Origin: Eledone cirrhosa
Taxonomy: Eukaryota
Assembly (NCBI GenBank): GCA_964016885.1
Contig: OZ024749.1
Coordinates: 27,900,001-27,964,000 of the forward strand
DNA length: 64,000 bases
Direction: 5' to 3'
Shown: positions 2,620-60,420 of the stretch, one piece after another
Position numbering within the stretch: the first letter of the stretch is position 1
Layout: the number at the start of each line of letters is the position of its first letter
Notes under the pieces: generated by a model
What the model was told of the DNA's origin: nothing
Seen by the model: only the letters and a program-made list of their open reading frames with translations
Database searches by the model: none
Program-made: the position numbers and the translations under genes

Positions 2620-2935
2620 GAGAATCAACTCCAGTATTCAACTGGTACTTTTTCTATCTACCTTGAAGGGATGAAAGGTAAAGTGATAAAGATATATAGG
2701 AGAATCAACTCCAGTATTCAACTGGTACTTTTTCTATCTACCTTGAAGGGATGAAAGGTAAAGTGATAAAGATATATAGGAGAGTCAACCCCAGTATTTA
2801 ACTGGTACTTTTTTTATCGACTTCAAAAGGATGAGAGGTAACATTTACCTCAGTAGGATTTGTACTCGGAGAGCAGAGAGCTGGAACAAATACCACAAAG
2901 CATTCTATTTGACGTCGTAAAGACTCTGCCATTTC
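2620..2935 (-). mobile_element. tRNA-derived SINE with Meta-like domain, 3' part triplicated
   Basis: Reverse complement contains the CCTTTCATCC..GGT(A/C)GATA..AAAGTACCAG motif three times. Confidence 0.65.
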
Positions 2936-2944
2936 ACTGCAATA

Positions 2945-3825
2945 TATATAAAAATTCAAGCATGTTTTGCAGCATGAAGACCAGAAACAGGAGGTGTTCA
3001 GAATTGCAAGGCTGTGCGTCAGGGAAAATTGCGATGTCATTGGTGAGAAGGAGTATCCGGGATGATAAAGGTGCACTTGCCCTCACAAGCGCCGAAAAGA
3101 AAGCTGCATGGAAGAACCATTATGAAAGATTACTGAATGAGGAGAATGCATGGGAAAAAGAGACTCTACCCCAAGTGGACCCTACAAAGGACCCAACCAT
3201 ACAAGACAGCAGCAGTGTAGTAACTAAGGCAATTAAGGATATAAAACCAGGAAAGCAGCCGGTTCATCAGGAATAGTTACTGAGATGCTGAAAGCATCTA
3301 GGTCGGTAGGTCACATCTTAACCATAAGTATTATAAACCAAGTAATACTAAATGGTGCCATACCAAATGATTGGCGCAGCAGCATCATTGTCAACTGCTA
3401 CAAGGGTAAAGGAGATGCATTAGATGGAGGAAACTATAGAGGCATCAGGTTGACTGGGTGTTGTGTGCAGAGGACCTGCACAGATTGGAAAGGAATGAAG
3501 CATGCATGCTGCGTTGGATGTGTAATAGTAATATACATGAATGACAAAACATAAATGAACTAAGTGAGAAATTAGGAATAAGAAGGATCAGATGCAGTTT
3601 ACTTGAGAGGAGATTATGTTGGTATGGTCACGTGATGCGCATGAAAGGCGACAGCTGTATAAAAAGTGCAGGGAGATCAAAATTGATGGAAGCTATGGAG
3701 TAGGTAGACCCAGAAAAACCTGGGATGACATGATAAAAACTGACCTTGCACACTTACACCTCTCTAAGACAATGTCACTGGATCGAGACCTTTGGCGCTA
3801 CGCAGTAATACAGAAGACCCGCCTT
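2945..3825 (+). mobile_element. Decayed, internally deleted RTE-clade LINE ORF fragment
   Basis: Translated pieces WKNHYERLLNEEN, IPNDWRSSIIVNCYKGKGDALDGGNYRGIRL and GRPRKTWDDMIKTDL; frameshifts; RT core missing. Confidence 0.9.
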
Positions 3826-3844: not shown

Positions 3845-4181
3845 TCATCATCATTCCATTTTACGTCCACTTTTTCCCTGCTTGCAAGGGTGGGACGGGA
3901 ACTGATTCTGGCTTGATTTCTACAGCTGGATGCCCTTCCTAACACCAACCTCATTTATAGTGAGTGCTGGGTGCTTTTTTGCCGTGGCACCTCCACGACC
4001 ACTTTGCAGTGGAATGATATGGACCCCAGTCCTATCATCTCATTTCTACAGCTGAGTAAACTGGAGCAATGTGAAATAAAGTGTCTTGCTCAAGGAAACA
4101 ACACATCACCCAGTCTGGGAATTGAACTCACAACCTTTTGATTGCAAGGCCAATGCTCTAACCACTAAGCCATGTGCCTCC
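3845..4181 (-). mobile_element. tRNA-head composite SINE with RTE-type 3' tail
   Basis: Head GGAGGCACATGGCTTAGTGGTTAGAGC with B-box GAGTTCAATTC; central CCTTGAGCAAGACACTT; GTTAGGAAGGGCATCCAGC; tail GGACGTAAAATG..(ATG)n; near-identical copies elsewhere in the window. Confidence 0.9.
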
Positions 4182-4309
4182 ATATGTATGAAGTTAAACC
4201 TACAGCCAGTAGACACCTCTTGACCCAATATACAACCCACCCCAATAGCCCTACTCCATCCTCCCACTCCCACCAACACCACCCTTTCTCTGTAAAGTTA
4301 TGTTGGTAC

Positions 4310-6440: not shown

Positions 6441-6799
6441 ATTATGTAAACGAGCACAGAGTATAAATAAGATTTGTTACAAGCAATTATTTCTAACTTT
6501 GCCCAAAATTTACAAATTACAAGTTGGGACATATTCAGCTTCAGCACATACATACATACATACGTGCATACATACATAGGTACCTACGCATATATACATA
6601 CACACACACACACACAATCATCATCATCATCATCCTCATCATCACCACCGTCATCATAATCAATGTTTAGCGCCATTTTTCCATGCTTGTATGGGTTAGG
6701 CGGGCTGTCCATGTTGGGAGTCAAGTCTGGCCAGAGTTGGTCACACTGTACCTTGCTCCGACGAGGCCTGTATATATATATATATATATATCTTTTCTT

Positions 6800-7125
6800 T
6801 TCATTTTACGTCCACTTTTCCCTGCTTGCAAGGGTGGGACGGGAACTGATTCTCGCTTGATTTCTACAGCTGGATGCCCTTCCTAACACCAACCTCATTT
6901 ACAGTGAGTGCTGGGTGCTTTTTTGCCGTGGCGCCTACACGTCCACTTTGCAGTGGAATGATAGGGACCCAAGTCCTATCATCTCATTTCTACAGCTGAG
7001 TAAACTGGAGCAATGTGAAATAAAGTGTCTTGCTCAAGGAAACAACACATCACCCGGCCTGAGAATTGAACTCACAACCTTTCGATTGCAAGGCCAATGC
7101 TCTAACCACTAAGCCATGTGCATCC
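6800..7125 (-). mobile_element. tRNA-head composite SINE copy
   Basis: Highly similar to 3845-4181. Confidence 0.9.
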
Positions 7126-9844: not shown

Positions 9845-10294
9845 TTTGAGTGTATGTTGGTTGTATACCAACACCTCAGTATGCAGGCTGGAGCACTCGA
9901 CGAAGTGCGCAGGTTGGTTTCGTTACTCCGGAGTAATGTAAAATAAAGTTAAATAAAAAGTCAAATGTTTAAAATTTAGCTTCGTTTATTGCTGCTATAT
10001 ATATTTCAGTGACAGCCATCTTTGGCTGTGACCTCTTCAGGCAGTCTGAACCAGTGTGGTACAGACAAGCACACATGTTGTTGAGGTGTATAATACTGTC
10101 AATACTCTGATATGCCCAGTTCCTGGTTGGGCCGTCATTTCACTGAGGAACCGGAATCATGATATGATTCCGGTTCCTCAGTGAACTGGTTCGGACTGCC
10201 TGAAGAGGTCACAGCCAAAGATGGCTGTCACTGAAATATATATAGCAGCAATAAACAAAGCTAAATTTTAAACATTTGACTTTTTATTTAACTT

Positions 10295-10301
<7 letters not shown>
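9845..10301. mobile_element. Fold-back element with paired hammerhead ribozymes, nested hairpin and ACTC..GAGTGCT tail
   Basis: Arms ~9938-10055 / 10185-10301; flanked by (TA)n on both sides. Confidence 0.8.
10196..10248 (+). ncRNA. Type I minimal hammerhead ribozyme
   Basis: CTGC|CTGAAGA-GGTCACAGCC-AAAGAT-GGCTGTCACT-GAAA-TATATA-TA|GCAG followed by AATAAA; mirror copy on the minus strand at ~9992-10044. Confidence 0.8.
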
Positions 10302-11860: not shown

Positions 11861-12072
11861 TAAAACACATGCAACCAAGAAAGCCTAGTGGAAGGAAGCT
11901 GCAGTAAAGAAAATCTGGATGGAAGTGGCAGGAGCTGATCCCAGATCACAAGCTCACGGAGGAGATGACAAAGGAACGCAACAAGTGAAGAGATGCTGTA
12001 CTGAGAAGGACCTGTCCAACCCATACAAGCATGGAACAATGGATGTAAAATGATGATGATATATATATATAT

Positions 12073-12412
12073 GGAGGCACATGGCTTAGTGGTTAGAGCA
12101 TTGGCCTTGCAATCGGAAGGTTGTGAGTTCAACTCTCAGACCGGGTGATGTGTTGTTTCCTTGAGCAAGACACTTTATTTCACATTGCTCCAGTTTACTC
12201 AGCTGTAGAAATGAGATGATAGGACTGGGGTCCATATTATTCCACTGCAAAGTGGTCGTGGAGGTGCCACGGCAAAAAAGCACCCAGCACTCACTGTAAA
12301 TGAGGTTGGTGTTAGGAAGGGCATCCAGCTGTAGAAATCAAGCCAGAATCAGTTCCCGTCCCACCCTTGCAAGCAGGGAAAAGCGGACGTAAAAATGAAA
12401 TGAAATGATGAA
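12073..12412 (+). mobile_element. tRNA-head composite SINE copy (full length)
   Basis: A-box TGGCTTAGTGG, B-box GAGTTCAACTC, tail GCGGACGTAAAAATGAAATG. Confidence 0.9.
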
Positions 12413-12756
12413 ATGATACATACATACACACACTCAAACATGTACACACACAGAGACATACACATATATATAATTATTCCTCTGAATTTTTCAATTTTCA
12501 ACGGAAACTTCAATACTTATATATATATATATATACACGCACACACACATATGTATTTACACATACACACACACACATATATATATATACATACCTAACA
12601 TATATATATATATATATATATCCAGAAATAGCCGTCGAAACGGCTTGAGCTCTGCCGTCGGGGTCATTCTTTTTCCTATATATATATATATATATATGGG
12701 TACATATATATATATATATATATATATAAACATATATATATATATATATATATATA

Positions 12757-27154: not shown

Positions 27155-27223
<69 letters not shown>

Positions 27224-27226
27224 TAT

Positions 27227-27715
27227 GCACCAGTTGCTTTCACTCCAATTTATTATAGATTAAAAAAAAATTTTTTTTAATTTTTTCAAAAAATTAATAA
27301 ATTTCCGGTTGGTTGGTTGGTTCCACAACCAGACGGTTGTTCATATACTGTCAAAGTTCTTTCGTCACACATTCTGTGACCTCTTCAGTGACTGGGGATT
27401 CTTTTCTTTGTTTTGTGCCTCTTCTTTGTTCTGTCCTACGCCATCTTACAAAAACAAGATGGCGTAGGACAGAACAAAGGAGAGGCACAAAACAGAGAAA
27501 AGAATCCCCAGTCACTGAAGAGGTCACAGAATGTGTGACGAAAGAAATTTGACAATATATGAAGAGCCGTTCTGTTGTGGAACCAACAAACCGGAAATTT
27601 ATTAATTTTTTTGAAAAAATAAAAAAAAATTTTTTTTTAATTTATAATAAAGTAGAGTGAAAGCAACTGGTGCGTGTGTTTCTTATTGGCAACATGACCC
27701 TCCCAAAGCATAACA
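27227..27715. mobile_element. Large fold-back element (~220-bp arms) with paired hammerhead ribozymes
   Basis: Arms 27227-27447 / 27456-27673 with an 8-nt loop; adjacent to (TA)n; single-arm copy at 61302-61557. Confidence 0.85.
27511..27553 (+). ncRNA. Minimal type I hammerhead ribozyme
   Basis: GTCA|CTGAAGA-G-GTCACA-GAATG-TGTGAC-GAAA-GAAA-TT|TGAC; mirror copy at 27350-27392 (-). Confidence 0.8.
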
Positions 27716-28569
27716 ATATCGGTTTCAACACACGTTTTCAGATAAAGAATCATGCTAAACAAATTCAGAAACGAAATATATATATATAAGAAAGAGGGTG
27801 TGGTAAGATACCAGGTGGACCATAACGTAACGGAGCTCAGCCGTTGGTTCCCGACTCTTTTCCTAAATATACATACATACACACATAGACATATATATCC
27901 ATTGTTTTTACACTGATGTAAATGTGTGTGAGTGTATCTATCTATATATGTGTGTGTGTGTTTATATTAATCTAAAAACCATCATAATTTCATGTAAGAA
28001 CCTTTGTTAAGTTATGTTCCAAACACTCCTGGTTCTATGATACAAAACTTTGTTTTAAAGTGCTTATATTTATCTAAAAATCTTCCATCATAATCTCATG
28101 TAAAAACCCGTTAAGTTATGTTCCAAGCACCAGCTTAACCCGTCTGATATCAAACCTCCTCAAACCAGTCCTGGTTCTATTATGTAAAGTTGTACATTTT
28201 AAAGTGTTTCTATTGAGCAAAAAAAAAACCTGCCATCATAATTTTATGTAAGAACCTTTGTTAAGTTATGTTCCAGACACCAACTTAATAATGATTTACA
28301 CCAATGTACATACATTCCCAGCCACTTCACAATAACTAAACAAACAAATATGTTGTCACAGTACTGACAAAATATTAGCATAGATCTCCTCCCTCAACAC
28401 AGCTCCCTCTCCCCTCCATTCAACACAGACCTCCTTCTCCAGCCTGCAGCCCCCTCCTCTCCAAATTGGGACTCCCATCGAACACATCCCGCCCACCACA
28501 CCACACATGATAGGAAATTCTAAGAAATGCGTCATATCTGTTGTGCAATATTTCTAACAAATACAATCT

Positions 28570-28861: not shown

Positions 28862-29780
28862 ATCATCATCACCGTTTTACGTCCGTTCTTCCACGCTAGC
28901 ATGGGTTAGACGGGTTGTCCTGTGTTGTGGGCAGTAGCCGGTTGGCTGACCATGCCTTGCTCATACGGGAACTGATTCTGGCTCGATTTTTACAGCTGGA
29001 TACCCTTCCTAACACCAACCTCATTTACAGTGTGGGCTGGGTGCTTTTTTGCCGTGGCACCTCCACGACCACCCAGTGGGAGGGGGTGGGGTCATATTGT
29101 CTATATGCTTCAGCTTGTACCCGTGGGGGTTCAGGTTTTCTGTATTACTGCACGACACCAGAGGTCACGGTCGTGTGTCATCGCCTTTGAGAGGTAATTG
29201 GTTAAGGTCGGCTTTTATCACCTCATCCTAGGTCTTCTTGGGTCTCCCCACTCCGCGGCTTCCATCAACTTCTAGTGCTCTGCACCTTTTTATGCAGCTG
29301 TCATTCTTCATACGCATCACATGTCCATACCAACTCAACCTCCTCTCCTGCACACAGCATTTGATTCCTCTTATGCTCAGTCTCTCTCTCAATTCGTTTA
29401 TGCTTTGCTGTTCGCGTATATTACTCTTACACCTCCATCAGAGTATGCAGGCTTCGTTTCTTTCTAATCTACGCAAGTCTTCTACAGACAGCACCCAGGT
29501 CTCACTACCATGTAACATTGCTGTTCGTAACACGCATCATAAAGTCTGCTCTTCATTTTGAGGGAAAAGCCCTTTTGCAGCTAGCAGTGGCTCCCTGAAC
29601 CTCTTCCATCCCGTTTTTACCCTAGTTATTGTTTATTCCAAACACCCACCTCCGCTGCTAATTCGGTCACCTTGGTAGCAGAAGCTGTCTACTGTTTCAA
29701 CAGAGCCCTCCCAGAGTTTGGTGGTGCTTGTTTCCTGTGGCTGTTTGCTGCTTGCTGTCCCAGCGCAGTTTTGGCATTGA
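28862..29780 (-). mobile_element. Decayed RTE LINE 3' end, sister copy of 12757-13797
   Basis: Reverse complement is collinear with the 12757 copy, including the 3'UTR and (ATG)n tail; frameshifted. Confidence 0.9.
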
Positions 29781-31059
29781 TACACTGGTTGGATGCCCTT
29801 CCTAACACCAGTGCCACTTTATAGCATGGACTGGGTGTTTTTATTTGTGCCACCAGCACTAGAGAGGATGTCTTACTGGACTCATGGGCCCTCTCTACTC
29901 CTCCATTTTACAGCATGTTCATGAAAAAAAAAAAAAAAAAAAAAAATTGACAAAGGACCGTGACAAGTGGAGAGATGCTGTGCTGAATAAGACCCGTCCC
30001 ACCCTTGCAAGCAGGGAAAGGCGGACGTAAAATGATGTTGATGATGATGATATACACACACAAACATATTCACAAATTCACAAATATGCGCGTGGTATCT
30101 ATGTTTGTGTGTGTATGTGAGTGCATGAGAATGTGTGTGTGGTCAGTGTGTGTGTGTTTGTATATGGTCAGTACATGTGTGTGTAGGTGTATGGTCAGTA
30201 TTCTGTCTGTGCATGTCTGATAAGTTTATCAATTGATTAAGTTCTAAGATAACTGCCTATCTTCACGACCTTCTCACTTATAACGAGAACAGGACATTAC
30301 CACAGTCATCACTATCACCACCATCTTCTCCACCACCACCATCTTCACTACCACCACCACCAACACCATCTTCTCCACCATTACCACCACCACTACCATC
30401 ACTATCACTACCACCATCTTCTCTACCAACACCACCACCATCATTATCACCACCACCACCACCATCTTCTCAACCAACACCACTACCACCACCATCCCTA
30501 TCACCACCATCACCACCACCACCAACTTCTCTACCACTACCAACACCACCATCATCATTACCACCTTCATATATCATCTCTCAATACACCCCCTCTCCCA
30601 TCACCATATAGCTTCTCTATCAACACCACTACCCCCACCATGATCACCACCTTCATCTATCATCACTATCTATACACAACTCCCTCACTCCCACCCTAAC
30701 CCTCACCATCATCATCACCCTCATATATCATCACTATCAATACACCACCCCCTAACCCTTCCCACCATCACCACAGCCACATCTTCCTCAATCAATATAC
30801 TACCACCACCATCACCATGTACCTTCACTGTCAACACCCCCCTGTAACCCTCCCCATCACCCCCACGACCATATCCTCCTCACTATCAATACACACCCCC
30901 ACCAACCCCAATTGTCATCACCTCATGACCTCAACCATCATCACCATATATATCTATTATCAATACCCCCCACACACACATATATAACACCACCCTTGAC
31001 CCTATCATCATCATGTCTTCACAACCAATAATACCACCACCACCACCCCTACTATCATC

Positions 31060-34000
31060 ATCCAGACAGTACCACCATTACCAACATTATCACAACCACC
31101 ACTATCATCATCATCATCATCAACATTACCATCACAACCACCACTATCATCATCATCACCAACATTACCATCACAACCACCACTATCATCATCATCAACA
31201 TTACCATCACAACCACCACTATCATCATCATCACCAACATTACCATCACAACCACCACTATCATCATCATCGTCAACATTACCATCACAACCACCACTAT
31301 CATCATCATCATCAACATTACCATCACCACCACCACTATCATCATCATCATCAACATTACCATCACAACCACCACTATCATCATCACCAACATTACCATC
31401 ACCACCACCACTATCATCATCATCATCAACATTACCATCACAACCACCACTATCATCATCACCAACATTACCATCACAACCACCACTATCATCATCATCA
31501 ACATTACCATCACAACCACCACTATCATCATCATCACCAACATTACCATCACCACCACCACTATCATCATCATCAACATTACCATCACAACCACCACTAT
31601 CATCATCATCATCAACATTACCATCACAACCACCACTATCATCATCATCATCAACATTACCATCACAACCACCACTATCATCATCATCAACATTACCATC
31701 ACAACCACCACTATCATCATCATCATCAACATTACCATCACAACCACCACTATCATCATCATCATCAACATTACCATCACAACCACCACTATCATCATCA
31801 TCAACATTACCATCACAACCACCACTATCATCATCATCAACATTACCATCACAACCACCACTATCATCATCATCACCAACATTACCATCACCACCACCAC
31901 TATCATCATCATCATCATCAACATTACCATCACAACCACCACTATCATCATCATCATCAACATTACCATCACCACCACCACTATCATCATCACCAACATT
32001 ACCATCACAACCACCACTATCATCATCATCACCAACATTACCATCACCACCACCACTATCATCATCATCATCAACATTACCATCACAACCACCACTATCA
32101 TCATCATCATCAACATTACCATCACAACCACCACTATCATCATCATCACCAACATTACCATCACCACCACCACTATCATCATCATCATCATCAACATTAC
32201 CATCACAACCACCACTATCATCATCATCACCAACATTACCATCACCACCACCACTATCATCATCATCATCATCAACATTACCATCACAACCACCACTATC
32301 ATCATCATCATCAACATTACCATCACAACCACCACTATCATCATCATCATCAACATTACCATCACAACCACCACTATCATCATCACCAACATTACCATCA
32401 CAACCACCACTATCATCATCACCAACATTACCATCACAACCACCACTATCATCATCACCAACATTACCATCACAACCACCACTATCATCATCATCATCAT
32501 CAACATTACCATCACAACCACCACTATCATCATCATCACCAACATTACCATCACAACCACCACTATCATCATCATCATCAACATACCATCACAACCGCCA
32601 CTATCATCATCATCATCAACATTACCATCACAACCACCACTATCATCATCATCATCAACATTACCATCACAACCGCCACTATCATCATCATCATCATCAA
32701 CATTACCATCACAACCACCACTATCATCATCATCATCATCAACATTACCATCACAACCACCACTATCATCATCATCATCAACATTACCATCACAACCACC
32801 ACTATCATCATCATCATCAACATTACCATCACAACCGCCACTATCATCATCATCATCAACATTACCATCACAACCACCACTATCATCATCATCATCAACA
32901 TTACCATCACAACCACCACTATCATCATCATCATCATCAACATTACCATCACAACCACCACTATCATCATCATCACCAACATTACCATCACAACCACCAC
33001 TATCATCATCATCATCAACATTACCATCACAACCGCCACTATCATCATCATCATCAACATTACCATCACAACCACCACTATCATCATCATCATCAACATT
33101 ACCATCACAACCGCCACTATCATCATCATCACCAACATTACCATCACCACCACCACTATCATCATCATCATCATCAACATTACCATCACAACCACCACTA
33201 TCATCATCATCATCAACATTACCATCACAACCACCACTATCATCATCATCACCAACATTACCATCACAACCACCACTATCATCATCATCACCAACATTAC
33301 CATCACAACCACCACTATCATCATCATCAACATTACCATCACAACCACCACTATCATCATCATCAACATTACCATCACAACCACCACTATCATCATCATC
33401 ACCAACATTACCATCACAACCACCACTATCATCATCATCATCAACATTACCATCACAACCACCACTATCATCATCATCAACAACATTACCATCACAACCA
33501 CCACTATCATCATCATCACCAACATTACCATCACAACCACCACTATCATCATCATCATCAACATTACCATCACAACCACCACTATCATCATCATCATCAA
33601 CATTACCATCACAACCACCACTATCATCATCATCATCAACATTACCATCACAACCACCACTATCATCATCATCATCATCAACATTACCATCACAACCACC
33701 ACTATCATCATCATCATCATCAACATTACCATCACAACCACCACTATCATCATCATCATCATCAACATTACCATCACAACCACCACTATCATCATCATCA
33801 ACAACATTACCATCACAACCACCACTATCATCATCATCATCAACATTACCATCACAACCACCACTATCATCATCATCACCAACATTACCATCACAACCAC
33901 CACTATCATCATCATCACCAACATTACCATCACAACCACCACTATCATCATCATCATCATCAACATTACCATCACAACCACCACTATCATCATCATCATC

Positions 34001-37000
34001 ATCAACATTACCATCACAACCACCACTATCATCATCATCATCATCAACATTACCATCACAACCACCACTATCATCATCATCAACAACATTACCATCACAA
34101 CCACCACTATCATCATCATCATCAACATTACCATCACAACCACCACTATCATCATCATCAACATTACCATCACAACCACCACTATCATCATCATCACCAA
34201 CATTACCATCACAACCACCACTATCATCATCATCACCAACATTACCATCACAACCACCACTATCATCATCATCACCAACATTACCATCACAACCACCACT
34301 ATCATCATCATCAACAACATTACCATCACAACCACCACTATCATCATCATCACCAACATTACCATCACAACCACCACTATCATCATCATCATCAACATTA
34401 CCATCACCACCACCACTATCATCATCATCATCAACATTACCATCACAACCACCACTATCATCATCATCAACATTACCATCACAACCACCACTATCATCAT
34501 CATCACCAACATTACCATCACAACCACCACTATCATCATCACCAACATTACCATCACAACCACCACTATCATCATCATCACCAACATTACCATCACAACC
34601 ACCACTATCATCATCATCAACATTACCATCACAACCACCACTATCATCATCACCAACATTACCATCACAACCACCACTAGCATCATCATCAACATTACCA
34701 TCACAACCACCACTAGCATCATCATCATCAACATTACCATCACAACCACCACTAGCATCATCATCATCAACATTACCATCACAACCACCACTAGCATCAT
34801 CATCATCAACATTACCATCACAACCACCACTATCATCATCACCAACATTACCATCACAACCACCACTATCATCATCATCAACATTACCATCACAACCACC
34901 ACTATCATCATCATCATCAACATTACCATCACAACCACCACTATCATCATCATCAACATTACCATCACAACCACCACTATCATCATCATCAACATTACCA
35001 TCACAACCACCACTATCATCATCATCACCAACATTACCATCACAACCACCACTATCATCATCATCAACATTACCATCACAACCACCACTATCATCATCAT
35101 CAACATTACCATCACAACCACCACTATCATCATCATCACCAACATTACCATCACAACCACCACTATCATCATCATCATCAACATTACCATCACAACCACC
35201 ACTATCATCATCATCAACAACATTACCATCACAACCACCACTATCATCATCATCATCAACATTACCATCACCACCACCACTATCATCATCATCATCAACA
35301 TTACCATCACAACCACCACTATCATCATCATCACCAACATTACCATCACAACCACCACTATCATCATCATCAACATTACCATCACAACCACCACTATCAT
35401 CATCATCAACATTACCATCACAACCACCACTATCATCATCATCACCAACATTACCATCACAACCACCACTATCATCATCATCATCAACATTACCATCACA
35501 ACCACCACTATCATCATCATCAACAACATTACCATCACAACCACCACTATCATCATCATCATCAACATTACCATCACAACCACCACTATCATCATCATCA
35601 TCAACATTACCATCACAACCACCACTATCATCATCATCAACAACATTACCATCACAACCACCACTATCATCATCATCATCAACATTACCATCACAACCAC
35701 CACTATCATCATCATCAACAACATTACCATCACAACCACCACTATCATCATCATCATCAACATTACCATCACAACCACCACTATCATCATCATCATCAAC
35801 ATTACCATCACAACCACCACTATCATCATCATCAACAACATTACCATCACAACCACCACTATCATCATCATCATCAACATTACCATCACAACCACCACTA
35901 TCATCATCATCATCAACATTACCATCACAACCACCACTATCATCATCATCAACAACATTACCATCACAACCACCACTATCATCATCATCATCAACATTAC
36001 CATCACAACCACCACTATCATCATCATCATCATCAACATTACCATCACAACCACCACTATCATCATCATCATCATCAACATTACCATCACAACCACCACT
36101 ATCATCATCATCATCATCAACATTACCATCACAACCACCACTATCATCATCATCAACAACATTACCATCACAACCACCACTATCATCATCATCATCAACA
36201 TTACCATCACAACCACCACTATCATCATCATCACCAACATTACCATCACAACCACCACTATCATCATCATCACCAACATTACCATCACAACCACCACTAT
36301 CATCATCATCATCATCAACATTACCATCACAACCACCACTATCATCATCATCATCATCAACATTACCATCACAACCACCACTATCATCATCATCATCATC
36401 AACATTACCATCACAACCACCACTATCATCATCATCATCAACATTACCATCACAACCACCACTATCATCATCATCACCAACATTACCATCACAACCACCA
36501 CTATCATCATCATCACCAACATTACCATCACAACCACCACTATCATCATCATCACCAACATTACCATCACAACCACCACTATCATCATCATCAACAACAT
36601 TACCATCACAACCACCACTATCATCATCATCACCAACATTACCATCACAACCACCACTATCATCATCATCATCAACATTACCATCACCACCACCACTATC
36701 ATCATCATCATCAACATTACCATCACAACCACCACTATCATCATCATCAACATTACCATCACAACCACCACTATCATCATCATCACCAACATTACCATCA
36801 CAACCACCACTATCATCATCACCAACATTACCATCACAACCACCACTATCATCATCATCACCAACATTACCATCACAACCACCACTATCATCATCATCAA
36901 CATTACCATCACAACCACCACTATCATCATCACCAACATTACCATCACAACCACCACTAGCATCATCATCAACATTACCATCACAACCACCACTAGCATC

Positions 37001-37895
37001 ATCATCATCAACATTACCATCACAACCACCACTAGCATCATCATCATCAACATTACCATCACAACCACCACTAGCATCATCATCATCAACATTACCATCA
37101 CAACCACCACTATCATCATCACCAACATTACCATCACAACCACCACTATCATCATCATCAACATTACCATCACAACCACCACTATCATCATCATCATCAA
37201 CATTACCATCACAACCACCACTATCATCATCATCACCAACATTACCATCACAACCACCACTATCATCATCATCACCAACATTACCATCACAACCACCACT
37301 AGCATCATCATCAACATTACCATCACAACCACCACTATCATCATCAACATTACCATCACAACCACCACTATCATCATCATCACCAACATTACCATCACAA
37401 CCACCACTATCATCATCATCATCAACATTACCATCACAACCACCACTATCATCATCATCAACATTACCATCACAACCACCACTATCATCATCAACATTAC
37501 CATCACAACCACCACTATCATCACAACCACCACTATCATCATCATCAACATTACCATCACAACCACCACTATCATCATCATCATCAACATTACCATCACA
37601 ACCACCACTATCATCATCATCAACATTACCATCACAACCACCACTATCATCATCACCAACATTACCATCACAACCACCACTATCATCATCACCAACATTA
37701 CCATCACAACCACCACTATCATCATCATCACCAACATTACCATCACAACCACCACTATCATCATCATCATCACCAACATTACCATCACAACCACCACTAG
37801 CATCATCACCAACATTACCATCACAACCACCACTATCATCATCATCAACATTACCATCACAACCACCACTATCATCATCAACATTACCATCACTA
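31060..37895. repeat. 6.8-kb minisatellite, unit AACATTACCATCACAACCACCACT(ATC)3-6
   Basis: Read directly; unit lengths are multiples of 3, producing spurious 1700-2400-aa ORFs. Confidence 0.97.
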
Positions 37896-38109
37896 TCATC
37901 ATCACCTTCTACTCAAAAGTTATACCATACATCATCATCCGTTTCATGGCACCACTAGCAACCAATGCTGACATATTTATCCCTCCCCAACCATCATCAT
38001 CAACCTCATTTGAATATCTGTTCTTCACACATCTAACACTGAGCAGCAGAACTTTTGTTTATGCAGAACATAAACAAATATCACTGCCTCTGCTTGCAAT
38101 GTCAATGTT

Positions 38110-40443: not shown

Positions 40444-40654
40444 TTAACCCTTTAGCATTTAAACTGGCCACATCCGGCCAGAATTCTCTCACCTCTTTCT
40501 GTTTAAACCGGTCATAACCAGCCACTCATACCAACGTAAAGGTATTGTTCTCAAATAATATCCAAATCTCATAGTTTCGATATTATGCGAGATAAAGCCT
40601 TTACCGTGAAAATACAATAGTAAATATAGAATAATGTAAATACTAAAGGATTAA
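40444..40654 (+). mobile_element. piggyBac-type MITE with TTAA target-site duplication
   Basis: Interrupts CTTTG-TTAA-GTTA; an uninterrupted version of this host motif is at ~40243-40258. Confidence 0.88.
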
Positions 40655-40925
40655 GTTACATTCCAACCATCAACCTAATAATGAGAAAGTTAGTTATATT
40701 ACTAAATCCCTCCAAATTCTTGATTATTTTCAAAATATTTTGAGGAGCATAGACAATGGCTTCCCTTAGAAATATGGCAACAAAAGGGTTAAAACAAATT
40801 CCTAACAGCTCCAGGAAGTTGTGTAATGTATAGATCAGTTTTGTTAGTAATTGTGTGTGGTGTTTATTATAGCAGGAATGGTGAATCTATTCTAGAATGT
40901 GTAGCTATAGTGATGATAATTTTCC

Positions 40926-41143
40926 TTAACCCTTTAGCATTTAAACCGGGCAGAACTCTCTCACCTCTTTCTGTACAAACCAGCTGAACTGGCCACTCAT
41001 ACTGATGTTAAGGTATTGTCCTCAAAATAAATAACATTCAAATATTGTAGATTTGATATTATGTGAGATAATTGTGCAAGGTAAAGCCTTTGCCGTGAAA
41101 ATATAATAGTAAATATAGAGTAATGTAAATGCTAAAGGGTTAA
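40926..41143 (+). mobile_element. piggyBac-type MITE
   Basis: TTAA CCCTTTAGCATTTA ... TAAATGCTAAAGGG TTAA (14-bp TIR). Confidence 0.88.
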
Positions 41144-41239
41144 ATAGGTCCATCACATACACTCAGGTATTTTTGAGTAACAGATTATCAAAACCAAGTG
41201 TTTATAGAGACCCATGACCAGCTTCTACATTTTCTCGAT

Positions 41240-42874: not shown

Positions 42875-43250
42875 CCGTTTTTTACGTCTGTTCTTCCACA
42901 CTAGCATGGGTTAGACGGGTTGTCCTGTTGTGGGCAGTGTCCAGTCGGCTGACCTTGTCTTGCTCATACGGGAACTGATTCTGGCTTGATTTCTACAGCT
43001 GGATGCCCTTCCTAACACCAACCTCATTTACAATGAGTGCTGGGTGCTTTTTTGCTGTGGCACCTCCACGACCACTTTGCAGTGGAATGATAGGGACCCC
43101 AGTCCTATCATCTCATTTCTACAGCTGAGTAAACTGGAGCAATGTGAAATAAAGTGTCTTGCTCAAGGAAACAACACATCACCCGGTCCGAGAATTAAAC
43201 TCCCAACGTTTCGATTGCAAGCCCAATGCTCTAACCACTAAGCCATGTAG
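42875..43250 (-). mobile_element. tRNA-head composite SINE with a longer LINE-like tail
   Basis: Matches 3845-4181; its tail matches the RTE 3'UTR at 13670-13790. Confidence 0.88.
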
Positions 43251-44054: not shown

Positions 44055-44589
44055 CACCCATACACACACATTTATATATTCATTTTATTAAGGTTGAATA
44101 GTAAGTCTAGTTACTCAGGAGTTTGGCCTATTTATCACAGGGTCATCAGACAAGAACATATATGTGTGTGTGTATATATGTGTGTGTATATATATATATA
44201 TATACACACACACATAATACATAATAACAAATAGGCACAGCCTTATATATATATATAGAGAGAGAGAGATAGATAGATAGATACATATATGTCGTATATC
44301 AACATATGAGGTTTCAACAGTTTTCCCACTTCAATTTTTTTATGGTTACACCTTAAGTGGCACTTCAGTCCAGCTGTAGATTTACACATCAAGTCGCATT
44401 TGGTACAGATGACAGGATTTTGAGTGGAATAGGATGGATCGGATCTTTTTGTTAGATCTTAGATCACAAAATGGACCAGATGAGATTTTTCAAAGCCCTT
44501 TATAACTTCATGGCAGACAGTTCTCCATTTTCCACGGTTAGCAGCTAGGGCTTCGAAAGAAGTAAGAGGTATGTTCATATATATATATA

Positions 44590-44855
44590 GTTATGTAATA
44601 AACAACATAAGATAATTATTTAATTTACCAAAGGTTTCACAAAGACAGACGAGCCTGGCAGAGATGTCTGGCTTCAATTGTCAGAATGAAATTTTATTAA
44701 ATAAAATTTCATTCTGACTATTGAAGTCTGTGCCAAGCTCGTCTGTCTTCATGAAACCTTTGGTAAATGAAATAATTATCTTATGTTTATTACATAACTC
44801 AAAAGCTCTGTAGCCTACACTCTTTTCCTTTACCTTTCCTACGGAAACACTTCAT
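44590..44855. mobile_element. Fold-back element with paired, decayed hammerheads
   Basis: Arms 44590-44698 / 44700-44798; TTTCATT|CTGACTA-TTGAAG..CTTCAT-GAAACC-TTT-GGTA|AATGAAA; (TA)n on both sides. Confidence 0.75.
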
Positions 44856-46199: not shown

Positions 46200-46420
46200 A
46201 GGAGGATTCCCGAAACATGTCAGGAGGTGAACACTGTTAAAACAGTTACTCCTCAATACGTTAGTAGAGTGTAGGTATCTTTATCTTTTTTATATAGAGC
46301 TGACTTCTACAGGATTAAAACTGTTTCATTCATATGAAATCATCAGGATTATTCCTTATGGTTTCTCACAAATGAAACAGCTCTAGTCCTGTAGAAGTCA
46401 TTTCTATATAAAAAAGAAAA
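46200..46420 (-). mobile_element. Fold-back HHR element (GAAACAGTTCTAGTCCTGTAGAAG family)
   Basis: Arms 46285-46417; minus-strand CTGATGA at 46340-46346; tail ACTCTACTAACGTATTGAG; between (TA)n tracts. Confidence 0.75.
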
Positions 46421-46752
46421 AAATATATATATATATATAGCCCCAGCATGGCCTCAGCCGGATGGCTGAAACAGGTAAAAGAGTATACATATATATTCTA
46501 CCAGGAGTTGTGACCGGTAGATTATATGAGCAATAGAAAAACCAATGGAAACTATTTCCTTGGTTCATATTTGACAATCAGTTCATTTCTTGTACAAGGA
46601 GTTGTGACTGGTAGATAGATTCAGTAATAGAAAGACCAATGGAAACATTGTTTCTTTGGTCCTATTTAATGAGTTCCACCCTACTTGGTAAGCAAATGAG
46701 ATCTGGAAACTAGTTGATCGATAAAAAAAATATTAAAAAATATATATAGTTA

Positions 46753-47090
46753 TGGAGGCACATGGCTTAGTGGTTAGAGCATTGGGCTTGCAATCGAAAG
46801 GTTGTGAGTTCAATTCTCAGACTGGGTGATGTGTTGTTTCCTTGGTCAAGACACTTTATTTCACATTGCTCCAGTTTACTCAGTTGTAGAAATGAGATGA
46901 TAAGGACTGGGGTCCCTATCATTCCACTGCAAAGTGGTCGTGGAGGTGCCACGGCAAAAAAGCACCCAGCACTCACTGTAAATGAGGTTGGTGTAAGGAA
47001 GGGCATCCAGCTGTAGAAATCAAGCCAGAATCAGTTCCCATCCCACCCTTGCAAGCAGGGAAAAGCGGATGTAAAATGATGATGATGATG
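46753..47090 (+). mobile_element. tRNA-head composite SINE (full length)
   Basis: Matches 12073-12412; (ATG)n tail. Confidence 0.92.
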
Positions 47091-48829
47091 CTTGGTGAAG
47101 GTCACACTGCCAATGAAAATATACATTGGATTCATAATTAACTGGAAAATTAATTAATTAATGATTAACTAATTACATAATTGAAAATAGAAACTGAAGT
47201 GAGGGAACTACAACAGTGTGTGTGTGTGTGTGTGTGTTGACAGCATGACCTTACCAAAGTACAAGAATATCTCTTTCAACACATAATATCACATCAAGAA
47301 TCTTCCAAAACAAATACAAAAAGCTATATACATATATATATTTATACACACACACATATATATATATACACACATGCAAGCCCATATGCATATATATACA
47401 TACATATTCTTACACACACATAAATATACATATATAAACATACATATACATACAAATACATACATATATATGTACAAATACGTACATATATATACAAATA
47501 CATATATATACAAATATATACATATATATATACAAATATATACAAATACATATATATATACAAATATATTTATATATATAATGATAAAATAAATATATAT
47601 TTGATTATTGTTGCGTTAGGGTACACCTATATATATATATATGTACATCTGAGTATATACATACACACACATATTTAAATAAACACACACATACCTACAC
47701 ACACACACATACCTACACACACACACATATCTACACACAAAAAAAATATTGTATTTTATTTTGCAGATGGTTTCCATTTTCAGCTGGTTCCATCTGACAT
47801 GTCAAGCAGAGTTCTAAAAGGAGGATGAGGAGGAGGAAGAAGGGGTGAGGGTTTGTGTAAAGGCCTCCCCCCACCCCTATACCACCACCACCATGAACCC
47901 TCAACTCAACAGACCAAAAATAGAAACCTCCACCACCATCACCACCATGACACCTCCACCCCGAAATGTTCATAAACCGCCCACACAAAAACATCCATCA
48001 TCCCATCAGGATTCTCTGAGCCCCATCCTTTTGATGTGCAACTGTAATTTATCCCTAACAACCCCCCTCTTCTCCCTGCCCACTCCCTTCATACTCCCTA
48101 TCCACCCCCTTCTTACTCCCTACACACACCCTTCTTACTTCTAACCCACCCTGCCAACCTCCACCATCAGCATCACCACAATAACTAATTTATCCCCACC
48201 CCCTCTTTTATTTTCCTACCCCCCCCCCCCCCCACCGACCTGCACCACCACAACTGTAATTTAGCCCCCCTCTTCTCTCTCTCTCTGCAGACCTCCTTCA
48301 CCCCCATCACCCAATCTCCACCACCATCACCATCACCACCACAACTATAATTTAGACCCCCCCCTCCGCCTGCCAACCTCCACCACAAACACCATCACCA
48401 CGATTCCTACTGCATATTATTCCCCCTCTCCCAACACACCCCAAACCCCCATACCCACATCTCTGGTCCCTACTTAATAATAACCAAGAAATGGTTAGAA
48501 TAGTACAAGAGTGATGGCTGGGGTGTGTGGTGGTGTGGTGCATGGGGGCAGGTGACAATAAAAGGTGGAACCGGTTGGGGTGGGGGTAGAAGTAATGTCA
48601 GGTTTGATGGTTAACAGATGTTAGAGGGAGCTGATGAAAGAGGGTGGTGGGGTGAGGGGGTGGATGGGTAATGGTGATGATGTTATTGTTGATTAGCTGG
48701 AGAGTCATCCTGCTAGGGATAAAGGGGAGAGGAGAGCAATGGGAGGGGAGTGTGATCGTTTAGATAGGGAGTGTCCCACTAGGCGTGGAGTGGGATAGGG
48801 TGGGATTTGTGAGGGTTGAGACACAGGAC

Positions 48830-50215
48830 AGTCTTGCTGGGGGTGGGGTGGTGGAGGTTTAAGACACAGGAGAGCAAGGACAGTCTTGGTGGGTGGAGTG
48901 TGATGGTTTAAGAGACAAGAGAGTCTTGGTGGGTGGTGTGTGATGGTTTAAGAGACAAGAGAGTCTTGGTGGGTGGTGTGTGATGGTTTAAGACACAGGA
49001 GAGCAAGGAGAGACTTGGTGGGTGGAGTGTGATGGTTTAAGAGACAGGAGAGTCTTGGTGGGTGGTGTGTGATGGTTTAAGACACAGGAGAGCAAGGAGA
49101 GACTTGGTGGGTGGAGTGTGGAGGTTTAAGACAGGAGAGCAAGGAGGGTCTTGCTGTGGGTGGACTGTAATAGTTCAATACACAGGAGAACAAGGAGAGA
49201 CTTGGTGGAGTGGGGTGGAGTGTGGTGGACTGTGATCGTTGAAGTTACAGGAGAGCAAGGAGAGACTTGTTGGGGTGGAGTGTGGTGGTTTAAGACAGGA
49301 GAGCAAGGAGAGACTTGTTGGGGTGGAGTGTGGTGGTTTAAGACACAGAAGAGCAAGGACAGTCTTGTTGTGGGTAGAGTGTGATGGTTTAAGACAGGAG
49401 AGCAAGGAGAGACTTGCTGGGGTGGAGAGCGGTGGTTTAAGACACAAAAGAGCAAGGAGAGACTTGCTGGGGGTGGAGTGTGGTGGTTTAAGACACAAGA
49501 GAGCAAGGAGAGACTTGCTGGAGTGGAGTGTGGTGGTTTAAGACACAGGAGAGCAAGGAGAGACTTGTTGGGGTGGAGTGTGGTGGTTTAAGATACAGGA
49601 GAGCAAGGAGAGACTTGTTGGGGTGGAGTGTGGTGGTTTAAGACACAGAAGAGCAAGGAGAGACTTGCTGGGGATGGAGTGTGATGGTTTAAGACACAGG
49701 AGAGCAAGGAGAGACTTGTTGGAGTGGAGTGTGGTGGTTTAAGACACAGAAGAGCAAGGAGAGACTTGCTGGGGATGGAGTGTGATGGTTTAAGACACAG
49801 GAGAGCAAGGAGAGACTTGCTGGAGTGGAGTGTGGTGGTTTAAGACACAGAAGAGCAAGGAGAGACTTGCTGGGGATGGAGTGTGATGGTTTAAGACACA
49901 GGAGAGCAAGGAGGGTCTTGCTGGGGTGTTGTGTGATGGTTTAACTCTTAGGATTCAAACCAGCCATACCCAGCCAGAATTCTCTCACCTCTTTCTGTTT
50001 AAACTGGTCGTAACCAGCCACTCATACCGACATTAAGGTATTGTTCTCAAAATAAATAGCATCGAAATCTTGCAGATTCGATATTTTGTGATATAAAGCC
50101 TTTTCTGTGAAAATAAAACAGTAAATATAGAGTAATGTGAATGTTAAAGGGTTAAGACACAGGAGAAAAGGCAAGTCTTGCTGGGGTGGGGTGGAGTGTG
50201 ATGGTTAAGACCCAG
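48830..50215. repeat. ~59-bp minisatellite (GGTTTAAGACACAGGAGAGCAAGGAGAGACTTG(C/T)TGGGGTGGAGTGTG(G/A)T)
   Basis: Read directly. Confidence 0.93.
49941..50155 (+). mobile_element. piggyBac-type MITE inserted at the TTAA of a minisatellite unit
   Basis: GATGGT-TTAA-[element]-TTAA-GACACAGG versus the intact unit GATGGTTTAAGACACAGG. Confidence 0.88.
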
Positions 50216-51327: not shown

Positions 51328-51762
51328 CGAGCTCTAGGATTGGATGTGAGAAAAGAAGTATTACCTCTCTCTCTGTCATGTAAATAGCAACAATAGCTAG
51401 AGAGAATAGAAAAGAGAGAGAGAGAGAGAGAGAACAGAGACAGAATGGGGAAAGAGAAGAGAAAACTAAGTTTGAAGTATTGCCAGTGTACTCCTCTCTC
51501 TCTCTCTCTCACTCACTCTCAAGTCAGTCTCCCAGTGTTGTAAAAAACAAAGATCCTCAGCTGAGAGAGAGAAGGGAGAAAGGAGGGAGAGTGAGGGATA
51601 AGAAGGGAGGGAGAGAGAGAGGAAGAAGGAGGAGAAGAGAGAGGAGGAGGGGGAGGAAAGACAAATGGTTGTTTTGATTTCTCAGATTTAATTAAACCTG
51701 ATAGAAATCAGGAAATAATTTAATGAAACTAATCAAACAATTACACACCCACACATATATAT

Positions 51763-51980
51763 ATCAAATTTAATATAGAAATGGCTTCTACAGGACTAGA
51801 ACTGTTTCATTTGAAAGAAATCAGCAGGAAAGCTTTTTTGATTTCTTGGGCTTTCCTGACAACTTCTTTCGAATGAAACAGTTCTAGTCCTGTGGAAACC
51901 ATTTTTATATTAAATTTGATGTTTATACTCTACTAATGTATTGAGTACCTTACTAACTGTGGTTACCCCTCATTGAACTC
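51763..51980 (+). mobile_element. Fold-back HHR element, same family as 46200-46420
   Basis: Arms 51763-51920; cores CTGACAA (+) and CTGCTGA (-); tail ACTCTACTAATGTATTGAGTAC at 51927-51948. Confidence 0.78.
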
Positions 51981-53481: not shown

Positions 53482-53832
53482 GTACATATATATATATACA
53501 TCATCCAGTTTCCCCACAACAAGGGTTATATATATATGTGAGTGTGTGGTATCTGGAACTAGCTGTTGAAATGGCAAGAGCTCAGCTGTCAGGGTCATGA
53601 CCCTTTATGATATCATTTATTTTCCACGCTTGCATATATATATATATATATATACACACATACACACTCACAGTTGTCCTCCCGGAAAAAAATCATTAAA
53701 AAATCCCGGAAGATATTTACGATTCCACGAATATGCGGTGGTTTCCAGGAACAATTATTAGTTAGGTTCTAAGGAAAATTCCACGAATAACCGGGAAGGC
53801 GAATGTTGGGCGTGCACTGTATATATATATAT

Positions 53833-54273
53833 ATCATCATCATCATTTTACGTCCACTTTTCCCTGCTTGCAAGGGTGGGGCGGGAACTGATTCTGGCTT
53901 GATTTCTACAGCTGGATGCCCTTCCTAACACCAACCTCATTTACAGTGAGTGGTGGGTGCTTTTTTGCAGTGGAATGATAGGGACCCCAATTCTATCATC
54001 TTATTTCTACAGCTGGATGCCCTTCCTAACACCAACCTCATTTACAGTGAGTGCTGGGTGCTTTTTTTTTGCTGTGGCACCTCCACGACCACTTTGCAGT
54101 GGAATGATAGGGACCCCAGTCCCTATCATTTCATTTCTACAGCTGAGTAAACTGGAGCAATGTGAAATAAAGTGTCTTGCTCAAGGAAACAACACATCAC
54201 CCGGTCTGAGAATTGAACTCACAACCTTTCGATTGCAAGACCAATGCTCTAACCACTAAGCCATGTGCCTCCA
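53833..54273 (-). mobile_element. Composite SINE with an internal ~100-bp duplication
   Basis: The block TTTCTACAGCTGGATGCCCTTCC..GGGACCCC is present twice. Confidence 0.88.
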
Positions 54274-54289
54274 TATATATATATATATA

Positions 54290-54680
54290 GGGAGTGTAAC
54301 TTGGAGTTACTGCAGGTTCACCCGGGTGAGCACTCGATGTTTAGGTTCACTTCTGTGTTGAGGTGTAGAGCTGTACAGAGTGTAATATATTGAAAGGATA
54401 ACAAGGACGATTGGTTACTCCTTCATTACATTTTTTGGTAGGTGACGCGCGTTTCGCCACTGATCAGCTCAAGGTTCGATCTGTATCAATCTTACCTGAC
54501 TCTATAATCCGTAGCTCGACGGACCCTTTCTACTAGCATTTTAAAGGGTCCGTTGAGCTGCGGATTGTAGAGTCGGGTAAGATTGATACAGATCGAACCT
54601 TGAGCTGATCAGTGGCGAAACGCGCGTCACCTACCAATAAATGAAGGAGTAACCAATCATCCTTGCTATCCTTTCAATAT
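54290..54680. mobile_element. Fold-back element (~140-bp arms) with HHR 3' half GAAACGCGCGTC and AATAAA
   Basis: Arms 54387-54529 / 54543-54680; minus-strand tail ACTCT..ATCGAGTGCT at 54329-54381. Confidence 0.78.
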
Positions 54681-54758
54681 AGAAATATTAGAAAGTGAGG
54701 TTTTTTTTACAAAATGAAAAATAACCGAGGTGTCCTACACGAGTGAAAGTATAAAGAA

Positions 54759-54953
54759 AAAAAGATGAAATCGAAAATGCAACTGGAGTCTTATTTAAAA
54801 AAAAATACATATATTTATTTGGTTCCTTTACCGGTTTCGCAGTTCTTCTGCTTTTCAAAAGTAGAGTTGAGATGGAGGGTCTGTGGTAAAGGAACCAAAT
54901 AAATATATGTATTTTTTTAAAAATAAGACTCCAGTTGCATTTTCGATTTCATC

Positions 54954-54958
<5 letters not shown>
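54759..54958. mobile_element. Fold-back element with a U3-A8 variant hammerhead
   Basis: ~75-bp arms; ribozyme on the minus strand; ends in (TA)n. Confidence 0.78.
54826..54861 (-). ncRNA. Minimal hammerhead ribozyme, TTGAAAA core variant
   Basis: CTT|TTGAAAA-GCAG-AAGAA-CTGC-GAAA-CCGG-TA|AAG followed by AATAAA. Confidence 0.78.
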
Positions 54959-55351: not shown

Positions 55352-55361
<10 letters not shown>

Positions 55362-55520
55362 TACAAATATTAATAAAATAGATGTTCTTGTGATCAATTA
55401 AATTTTTTTATACATATTTCAGAGGTACAACAGTACGTCCTCATCAGAACATCTATTTTATTAATATTTGTATTTTAATATTAATAACTCTGGAAAATAT
55501 TTTTCAGTAGAGTGCTTCCA
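55352..55520. mobile_element. Fold-back element with an HHR in the loop
   Basis: ~36-bp AT-rich arms; minus-strand CTGATGA-GGACGTAC-TGTT-GTACCTCT-GAAA-TATGTA-TA; plus-strand ACTCT..GTAGAGTGCT at 55487-55516. Confidence 0.7.
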
Positions 55521-58233: not shown

Positions 58234-58239
<6 letters not shown>

Positions 58240-58555
58240 ATTAAATAAATGGAAACTATATTTATAAAACCATATTTATTTCATTATATATATTTCGGGG
58301 ATATCATATTAACAATATGCTATGCCAAATCTATTTATCTATAAAACTATTTATATTGTATTTTGTCTGAGGAAGGCATAGCATATTGTTAATATGATAT
58401 CCCCGAAATATATATAATGAAATAAATATGGTTTTATAAATATAGTTTCCATTTATTTAATATTGTAAATATACTCCAAATATTTGTCGAGTGCTTTTAT
58501 ATCAGTTATAAATATTTACTAGTTGTAACCCAACAATTTTAAATATAACTTTCCA
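58234..58555 (+). mobile_element. Fold-back element with apparently perfect ~93-bp arms, an HHR and the ACTC..GAGTGCT tail
   Basis: Arms 58234-58326 / 58375-58467; CTGAGGA at 58367-58373, GAAA at 58405-58408; (TA)n on both sides. Confidence 0.82.
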
Positions 58556-59003: not shown

Positions 59004-59554
59004 CTAGAAATTGATTAACATATATATAAACATGAATAATCATAATTTAATTTACCTTAATTTTGGATATATATATATATATATATATATGAAAAAAATA
59101 TTGTTTTTTACAAAAACAATATAAAAACTGGAAAAAGGAAGGTGGAGAAGTAAAAACCTAAAAAAACTAATTTATTATAATAAACAGTACAAAAGGCTAG
59201 TGGTTTGACGCTAAACCTCTATAGTTGGATAACATATATCTTTTAAGCGTCTCTGCTTATGACATTATTGCGTCTTTTTAAATGTAAATAAATGCTCTGA
59301 CTGTGTATTGTCGGTCTGTTTGATGAGACAATATTATGAGGTATTTCCTTATAAATGATTGATTTTGATAAGTCCCAATAAAGGAAAACAATACTCAATC
59401 TAGTACAAGAGAACTTGTACTAGATAGAGTATTGTTTTCCTTTGCCTTTTATCTACGGATATCCTGCATATATATATATATGGTTCCACATGCAGATTTT
59501 TGTAGCAAAGTCTGTCATACAACAATAAAACAAACAGGCATACAGTAGCCTAAA

Positions 59555-59730: not shown

Positions 59731-59743
59731 GCAATCTTCAGAC

Positions 59744-59956: not shown

Positions 59957-59990
59957 GGATAAAATTCTCCGGGTGTACATATACATAAAT

Positions 59991-60034
<44 letters not shown>

Positions 60035-60069
60035 GTCCAAGCAGGGAAAAGCGGACGTAAAATGATGAT

Positions 60070-60391: not shown

Positions 60392-60420
60392 TGATATATC
60401 TATATATACATATATATTCA

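Follow-up and report, generated by a model that had tools for sequence, protein, structure and literature searches.

How does a near-perfect palindrome with a hammerhead-like motif on each strand come to lie in an AT-rich stretch of animal DNA, and is it a small mobile unit or a by-product of something larger? The question is raised by an inverted repeat of 447 bases (27227-27673) in the window, the 64,000-nucleotide stretch of DNA analysed here. Our answer is that the hairpin consists of two short, head-to-head copies of a high-copy repeat, most likely laid down in one insertion by the protein of a Penelope-like retrotransposon (PLE). We place the probability of this reading at roughly three in four. 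Membership of the PLEs rests on architecture and is likely.

The two arms are 90% alike, with 406 of 452 alignment columns identical. The first-pass annotation had singled out this fold-back as the largest, and it is the longest of the 14 in the window (15 rows were found, one of them nested and dropped). As RNA, the hairpin folds with a z of -33, a value equalled by 0 of 100 shuffles. Rfam searches gave miRNA matches over the hairpin centre, the best at 61.4 bits against a gathering score of 95; these sub-threshold matches appear because the sequence forms a hairpin. Close to the centre lies a motif (27456-27464) that may be YY1-like. Between the hammerhead motif and the tail runs an AT-rich stretch (27590-27655), which differs in sequence between the hairpin and its sister copy and is much shorter in several contigs of sequencing run X4; it may be an intron or a spacer prone to slippage. 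Private substitutions are uneven, with 10 in the right arm and 4 in the left. This could reflect two templates or chance, and it counts against the PLE explanation, because an origin from a single template in a single event does not predict it. The positions of all features are collected in Table 1.

Table 1. Parts of the hairpin, its sister copy and related sequence in the window.
Feature	Position	Strand	Remarks
Left (TA)n microsatellite	27158-27219		ends 7 nt from left arm
Left (inverted) arm	27227-27447	-	5' start 59 nt before hammerhead core; stops at the counterpart of 27673, the first 3' stop point; tail absent
Hairpin loop, 8-nt centre	27448-27455	+	at least 27452-27455 is extra 5' element sequence of right arm
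Right arm, portion pairing with left arm	27456-27673	+	from inverted-repeat alignment
One-sided tail, 103 nt	27674-27776	+	family sequence; second stop point 27708-27719, third ~27776
Right-flank (TA)n	27777-27788		beyond far 3' end
Putative minimal type I hammerhead motif, left arm	27350-27392	-	core with extra G; stem I of 4 bp, stem II of 6 bp, stem III of 2 bp capped by AA; cleavage site CUU
Putative minimal type I hammerhead motif, right arm	27511-27553	+	stem III pair 15.2-16.2 broken by private A at 27547
Putative minimal type I hammerhead motif, sister	61464-61506	-	same sequence as left-arm motif from stem I to stem I
ATG plus 27-28 codons (MTLPK...)	27694-27776	+	codons shared with diverged relative
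Sister copy	61302-61558	-	5' start 56 nt before core; extends 35-39 nt beyond the end of the left arm; followed by (TA)n
Inverted stub	61557-61569	+	identical to far 3' end 27765-27777; 2-nt overlap with sister's 5' end; then (TA)n
Diverged tail relative	47224-47322	+	76% over 99 nt; same ATG, same 3' end before (TA)n; no hammerhead part

A spaced hammerhead core pattern occurs 3 times in the window against an expectation of 0.12, and 0 of 100 shuffles reach 3. The cores lie at 27515 (+), 27388 (-) and 61502 (-), those of the hairpin being 127 bp apart. All three copies carry the CTGAAGA core, a 6-bp stem II and a 4-bp stem I (GTCA/TGAC); the conserved positions C3-A9, G12-A15.1 and U16.1-H17 are kept in each, as are an extra G between A9 and G10.1 and the pair G10.1-C11.1 that closes stem II, while stem III is vestigial. 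The site triplet is CUU in the window and CUA in many reads. Intact hammerheads had been noted on both strands. For the core and stems I and II of both arms this is correct; the right arm falls short at stem III, where the pair 15.2-16.2 is broken. Position 16.2 (27547) is A in the right arm, C in the left arm and the sister, and C in 104,896 of 106,817 plus-strand first mates of run X23, so that only two of the three motifs keep both stem III pairs. A palindromic 15.2-16.2 plus loop III, of the kind that serves dimer formation, is absent, the sequence being G-AA-C in the left arm and sister and G-AA-A in the right arm.

The assignment of these motifs to hammerheads draws on core, topology and family variation and is putative. 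Rfam gave no hammerhead family at either motif tested, up to an E value of 10, and none among the 150 of 210 matches listed for the whole window; taken by themselves, the motifs have folds of about the same quality as shuffled sequence (z -0.3 to -1.0). Within 27511-27553, the sites that vary across the family are N7, loop II, loop III and H17. All 4 fall among the 10 unconstrained of 43 hammerhead positions (p = 0.0017, with 40 of 60 variant rows listed and with 27547, where the window alone differs, omitted). This pattern is what selection on the hammerhead fold in source elements would leave. In RNA that reads through the entire hairpin, both motifs are predicted to be buried in one long duplex with neither able to fold: the predicted probability of a stem II pair is 0.95-0.99 in single-arm RNA versus 2e-19 in read-through RNA. 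On this prediction, the presence of hammerheads on both strands would be a by-product of geometry and not a two-ribozyme device.

At their outer ends the arms are unequal, the right one continuing into a tail made of the element's own sequence. The far end had been set at 27715; read depth extends to about 27776-27785, and the actual end is near 27776. Three 3' stop points emerge for the family: 27673, 27708-27719 and ~27776. Among the rows listed, only the left arm displays the first. The sister stops at the equivalent of 27708-27712, with a tail of 35-39 nt versus 103 nt in the hairpin. Loose (AT)n sequence stands behind 27719 in 91 and 128 contigs and in 2,321 reads, and behind 27788 in 82 contigs (among the rows listed). 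The tail (27674-27776) is common to the sister, the diverged relative and the reads. Two pile-ups of read ends in X23, at 27599 and 27765, were rejected as element ends; both sit on AATT sites and are presumably RAD restriction ends.

The ATG at 27694 is suggestive of the start of the parent element's ORF. Differences between the hairpin tail and the diverged relative fall on third codon positions in 10 of 21 cases (p = 0.12), or in 10 of 19 (p = 0.065) once two window-private sites are removed. The 30-residue putative N-terminus had no match in Pfam or Atlas. Two protein matches of this peptide (E 7e-4), to a repetitive 2641-aa protein and to a 108-aa repeat, were set aside as uninformative. 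No reverse transcriptase or GIY-YIG domain tied to the family was found with the 27-28 codons available as query.

How could such a structure arise? According to the excerpted text of PMC11167929, AT-rich DNA is nicked by the PLE protein of the anole, which then extends both strands; it prefers RNA that its hammerhead has left uncut, and reverse transcription starts inside the RNA at tail ends. By analogy, a PLE protein would here have copied the 5' few hundred bases of the element RNA twice, once for each strand of a nicked (TA)n target. Reverse transcription would start inside the RNA at "tail" sites (27673, ~27712-27719 and ~27776) and run toward the RNA 5' end, with both target strands extended as in the in vitro work on the anole protein. 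The template would be hammerhead-uncut, as the same source suggests, so that every arm would read through the cleavage site. The two cDNAs, primed from different internal start points, would then meet near the 5' end of the RNA and be linked at that point. The clustered 5' ends would mark where transcription starts in a pseudo-LTR promoter, with only longer copies retaining the portion upstream; the hammerhead motif would lie within this pseudo-LTR, and both hammerheads of the hairpin would be passengers.

Several observations agree with a PLE insertion. An inverted 5'-truncated arm combined with a one-sided tail is a published PLE signature (PMC8557442; PMC3846280, both in excerpt), and PLE insertions often carry an inverted, 5'-truncated copy along with a one-sided tail of 30-40 bp (excerpt of PMC8557442). 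Both the hairpin and the sister hold a head-to-head, inverted, 5'-truncated copy, the 3' tail is one-sided and made of element sequence, and insertion favours AT-rich, (TA)n targets. The 103-nt tail exceeds the 30-40 bp of PLE tails in this literature and counts against the assignment. Direct partial tandems (pLTR-ORF-pLTR) are absent from the window; one X4 contig reaches the far 3' end and returns to 27515, as in a partial tandem.

The same PLE origin could also be reached by another route, in which the inverted arm forms by self-priming, or snap-back, at the 5' junction instead of from two separately primed cDNAs. The discussion in PMC3846280, as excerpted, reads palindromes at inverted junctions in this way (proposed for an antisense template). 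The hairpin centre would suit it, the junction between the right and left arms being blunt or nearly so, because reads align from 27452, and the inner 95 bp of the arms having just 2 differing sites. The outer ends are harder to reconcile with snap-back: the hairpin arms stop at different family-wide 3' points, and the sister bears a 12-nt stub that is absent from its own long arm and so is no copy of that arm. The anole protein, moreover, extends both strands in vitro. We give self-priming a lower, though appreciable, probability.

The sister copy deserves closer description. It had been taken for a single-arm relative that starts at the hairpin centre. Dispersed it is, at 85% identity, and its arm does stop at the centre, but its 5' end is abutted by the 12-nt inverted stub of the far end; the sister is therefore itself a very asymmetric head-to-head structure. 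All 16 of 16 letters agree between 27765-27780 and 61557-61572, the plus-strand 12-mer of the stub occurs in the window only there and at the hairpin's far end, and its chance of appearing at a given junction is ~2e-7. Since the stub is not contained in the long arm, two primings are favoured, unless it is a relic of deletion. (TA)n borders both outer ends of the hairpin and of the sister.

The asymmetry of the sister was made either at insertion or by later deletion. In the latter case, 61302-61569 would once have been a hairpin, and a deletion between microhomologies of 2 nt would have removed its plus arm except for the last 12 nt. Long palindromes are deletion-prone, and TC is shared on both sides of the junction. 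Microhomology deletions of PLE copies are described in the excerpted text of PMC3846280. Against such decay, the breakpoint coincides with the 5' end of the long arm, which belongs to the cluster formed by the other arms, nothing of the plus arm's 5' part remains, and 2 nt of homology is common by chance. We find decay doubtful, while granting it some weight for this one copy.

The reading of the hairpin as two joined cDNAs also has to be set against the family at large. One arm plus tail (27450-27790) served as the query for four sequencing runs (X1, X4, X23 and X17), which hold at most 0.52 of the window's sampled words and may be from other species; carriers number 9,994 of 16.5 million contigs in X1, 10,834 of 17.6 million contigs in X4 and 126,552 of 12.5 million reads in X23, a RAD library. 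In X17, RNA by guess, 0 of 53,089,204 records aligned, a null that can be false. Exact-pattern scans gave 0 loci in metagenome contigs, prokaryote genome contigs and viral contigs. With ~10,000 contigs in each of two genomic runs, the earlier recognition of a dispersed, PLE-type mobile repeat with hammerhead motifs is well founded. Its further statement that the unit is mobile holds for the family, which is dispersed and high-copy and has moved; that the short unit itself is the mobile species, as opposed to a truncated product of a longer element, finds no support.

Much depends on the 5' ends. Relative to C3, the right arm starts at -63 to -67, the left arm at -59 and the sister at -56. The first-pass annotation saw a fixed 5' boundary about 55 nt upstream that defines a unit; the ends only cluster within ~10 nt, and longer copies are common. 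In X23, family-like or shared sequence extends to ~96 nt upstream of the core in 62,151 of 126,552 reads, a proportion of about half that is no copy fraction, the RAD library selecting copies with a site upstream. They come from the three loose-end classes listed (33,709, 11,907 and 16,535 reads, with median lengths of 33, 72 and 76, agreement of 0.94-0.99 and a common reach to ~27419). A 15-nt piece of the upstream read consensus had 0 matches in the window at 3 mismatches. Loose ends also stand before 27509-27510 in 156, 194 and 53 contigs (low agreement, ambiguous), and an opposite-strand joint 27450/27511 occurs in 1 and 3 contigs; these counts come from the rows listed, 18 out of 817 for loose ends and 15 out of 150 for joints. 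Taken together, the breaks at 27509-27515 suggest that a second group of 5' ends lies at the hammerhead edge. The 5' boundary is a preferred stop and not the family's limit. Random boundaries extending into long PLE coding sequence, named earlier as the pattern that would speak against a unit, were not what we found: ends are clustered, and no long ORF was found.

These data bear on the proposal of a non-autonomous, self-contained unit of ~250-330 nt with a fixed 5' end, transcribed and re-mobilised itself in the manner of a mini-PLE or retrozyme. All 3 of 3 window arms start within ~10 nt, copy number is very high, the hammerhead is conserved at constrained positions, and a long ORF is lacking, all of which such a unit would explain. 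The longer X23 reads tell against it (with the reservation on RAD selection just given), as do the further 5' ends at 27509-27515 and a window without the tandem array that animal retrozymes have. We regard a self-contained unit as unlikely.

Could the hairpin instead be a fold-back DNA transposon (MITE) with long terminal inverted repeats and a chance hammerhead-like motif? It is a near-perfect palindrome of MITE size in a TA-rich target. Its ends, however, are asymmetric by 103 nt of family sequence, where a MITE would have symmetric ones, the partners of the arms are unequal, some relatives consist of the tail, and the hammerhead core is left untouched by family variation, which makes this origin very improbable. 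Nor can a target-site duplication be defined inside the (TA)n, a point that weighs against the PLE explanation as well. Long-read chimeras can yield palindromes, but an assembly or library artefact has a negligible chance of explaining arms of different length that disagree at 46 of 452 columns and carry private changes on either side, in a window where 14 fold-backs of several unrelated families share the same anatomy.

This shared anatomy extends to the flanks. Fold-backs lie within 5 nt of a (TA)4+ run at one end in 9 of 14 cases versus 373 of 5000 random intervals (p = 1e-7); the hairpin studied here, with its (TA)n 7 nt away, is not among the 9. On the far side, the distance to (TA)n is 54-102 nt in several other fold-backs (upper bounds). 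A CTGAnGA core is present in 5 of 14. In this genome several families give rise to the head-to-head structure as a matter of routine.

Comparison with known systems, drawn from excerpts of the papers cited, places the hairpin close to the EN+ PLEs (PMC3846280; PMC8557442), which share the head-to-head inverted arm without a tail, the one-sided tail, the (TA)n-associated insertion and the solo or stub forms. The pLTR plus tail of PLEs holds the first ORF codons (12 and 22 aa in A. vaga Pen2a; PMC3846280), and the 27-28 codons here are suggestive of the same arrangement. Unlike EN+ PLEs, the hairpin has no ORF body between the arms, and its 103-nt tail has three stop points as against 30-40 bp between two. 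PLE minimal hammerheads have stems I and II of 4 and 6 bp, one additional nucleotide after position 9 (before 10.1) and a G10.1-C11.1 pair, and dual motifs on opposite strands, 100-700 bp apart, are described in Schistosoma mansoni (PMC4209133). The motifs of the window resemble these metazoan forms in their long stem II, 4-bp stem I, extra 9/10.1 nucleotide, G10.1-C11.1 pair and near lack of stem III; they differ in a loop III (AA) that is not palindromic, in their site triplet (CUU, or CUA in many reads) and in the damaged stem III of the right arm.

The element Poseidon PAc of Anolis carolinensis (PMC11167929) offers the closest view of the ends. As there, arms read through the uncut hammerhead, the target is AT-rich, and internal 3' ends recur in an A/C-rich stretch at or after the putative ATG. 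In Poseidon PAc, the ORF starts at stem II and in vitro mapping gave two start sites of reverse transcription. The putative ATG of the present family is separated from the core by ~180 nt and follows an AT-rich stretch of variable length. Animal non-LTR retrozymes (PMC7229834; bioRxiv 10.64898/2026.07.22.740005) are likewise short, non-coding, PLE-related and equipped with a type I hammerhead. They form head-to-tail tandem units, each with a hammerhead (bioRxiv 10.64898/2026.07.22.740005), whereas copies in the window are inverted or single, carry a minimal hammerhead and include no tandem. A limited literature search by title and start of abstract found no octopus paper on such a structure and no start-site explanation. 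Little sets the hairpin apart within an architecture already known: its 3' stop points number three, its tail is 103 nt long and its 5' ends cluster at some distance upstream of the hammerhead.

The hairpin adds one more family to that described architecture. If the reading of its boundaries holds, thousands of copies provide a natural test of how inverted PLE ends arise (two primed cDNAs versus self-priming) and of whether the hammerhead serves any purpose in vivo. ADAR acts preferentially on repeats that fold on themselves, and editing of Penelope is heavy in lizards (excerpt of PMC5625713); by analogy, dense PLE palindromes could possibly matter for editing load. A bolder and, in our estimate, rather unlikely extension is that PLE proteins of this lineage mass-produce ORF-less palindromes, with outer ends set by three internal start points of reverse transcription (tails to ~100 nt) and the centre set by the pseudo-LTR transcription start. 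With 14 fold-backs in 64 kb, such insertions would then supply most of the ready-made long dsRNA of the genome and rank among the chief targets of A-to-I hyper-editing, and the asymmetry of the arms would record how a PLE dimer primes the two strands.

Other fold-backs of the window vary in form. The one at 9941-10299 has complete-looking hammerhead motifs on both arms (cores 10040, -, and 10200, +), a palindromic TATATA loop III and a longer spacer with a perfect hairpin (10136-10188); (TA)n adjoins it on one side and lies 99 nt away on the other. A 110-bp fold-back of another family (1959-2068) has an 81-nt one-sided extension, with a single arm of the family at 12622-12676 and a diverged piece at 53550-53598; the first part of 27780-27866, directly behind the right (TA)n of the studied hairpin, matches that extension. 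Three fold-backs of one family (46280-46421, 51756-51927 and 63387-63453) have different centres in or just before a hammerhead-like core, so that centres are not inherited as a fixed unit there. In 55357-55477, the hammerhead-like core (55447, -) has the reverse orientation to those of the other fold-backs, pointing from the outer end towards the centre. Further ones lie at 44589-44799, 54386-54681, 54760-54957, 58236-58466, 59380-59443, 60038-60114 and 60420-60523, most with (TA)n at one end; 54760-54957 has an 8-nt motif in common with the arm end of the studied family. Single motifs occur as well: a minimal hammerhead motif at 45826 (+), with the extra nucleotide and a CG loop III, and a mini-hammerhead-like motif at 61150-61215 (-; core 61192), with a palindromic CTAG loop III, ~100 nt from the sister and with no other copy in the window.

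The window as a whole is AT-rich and of animal type, with simple repeats covering 24,018 of 64,000 bases. Visual inspection of the frames of at least 45 aa listed from 154 candidates revealed no host exon. LINE-like reverse transcriptase fragments lie at 12830-13777, 28872-29768 and 2857-3819 (RT and PHD domains in relatives); the fragment 12804-13490 has 986 relatives, those named among the 120 listed being sea slug, oyster and priapulid at 41-49% identity, a spread that places the host among the animals but no more closely. These fragments share their end with a young dispersed repeat of ~330 bp (90-97% identity; 3857-4189, 6796-7125, 12065-12392, 42968-43248, 46751-47075, 54003-54272 and 60081-60392), which is probably a tRNA-derived SINE, since 46761-46824 and 54206-54263 weakly match tRNAs. 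Another dispersed repeat, ~210 bp long, has six copies at 76-85% identity (15884-16095, 22662-22889, 40444-40656, 40915-41144, 49948-50156 and 59742-59969). Finally, a CAT/CAC-rich minisatellite of ~7 kb (31000-37950) has a GC skew of -0.99 and long spurious frames.
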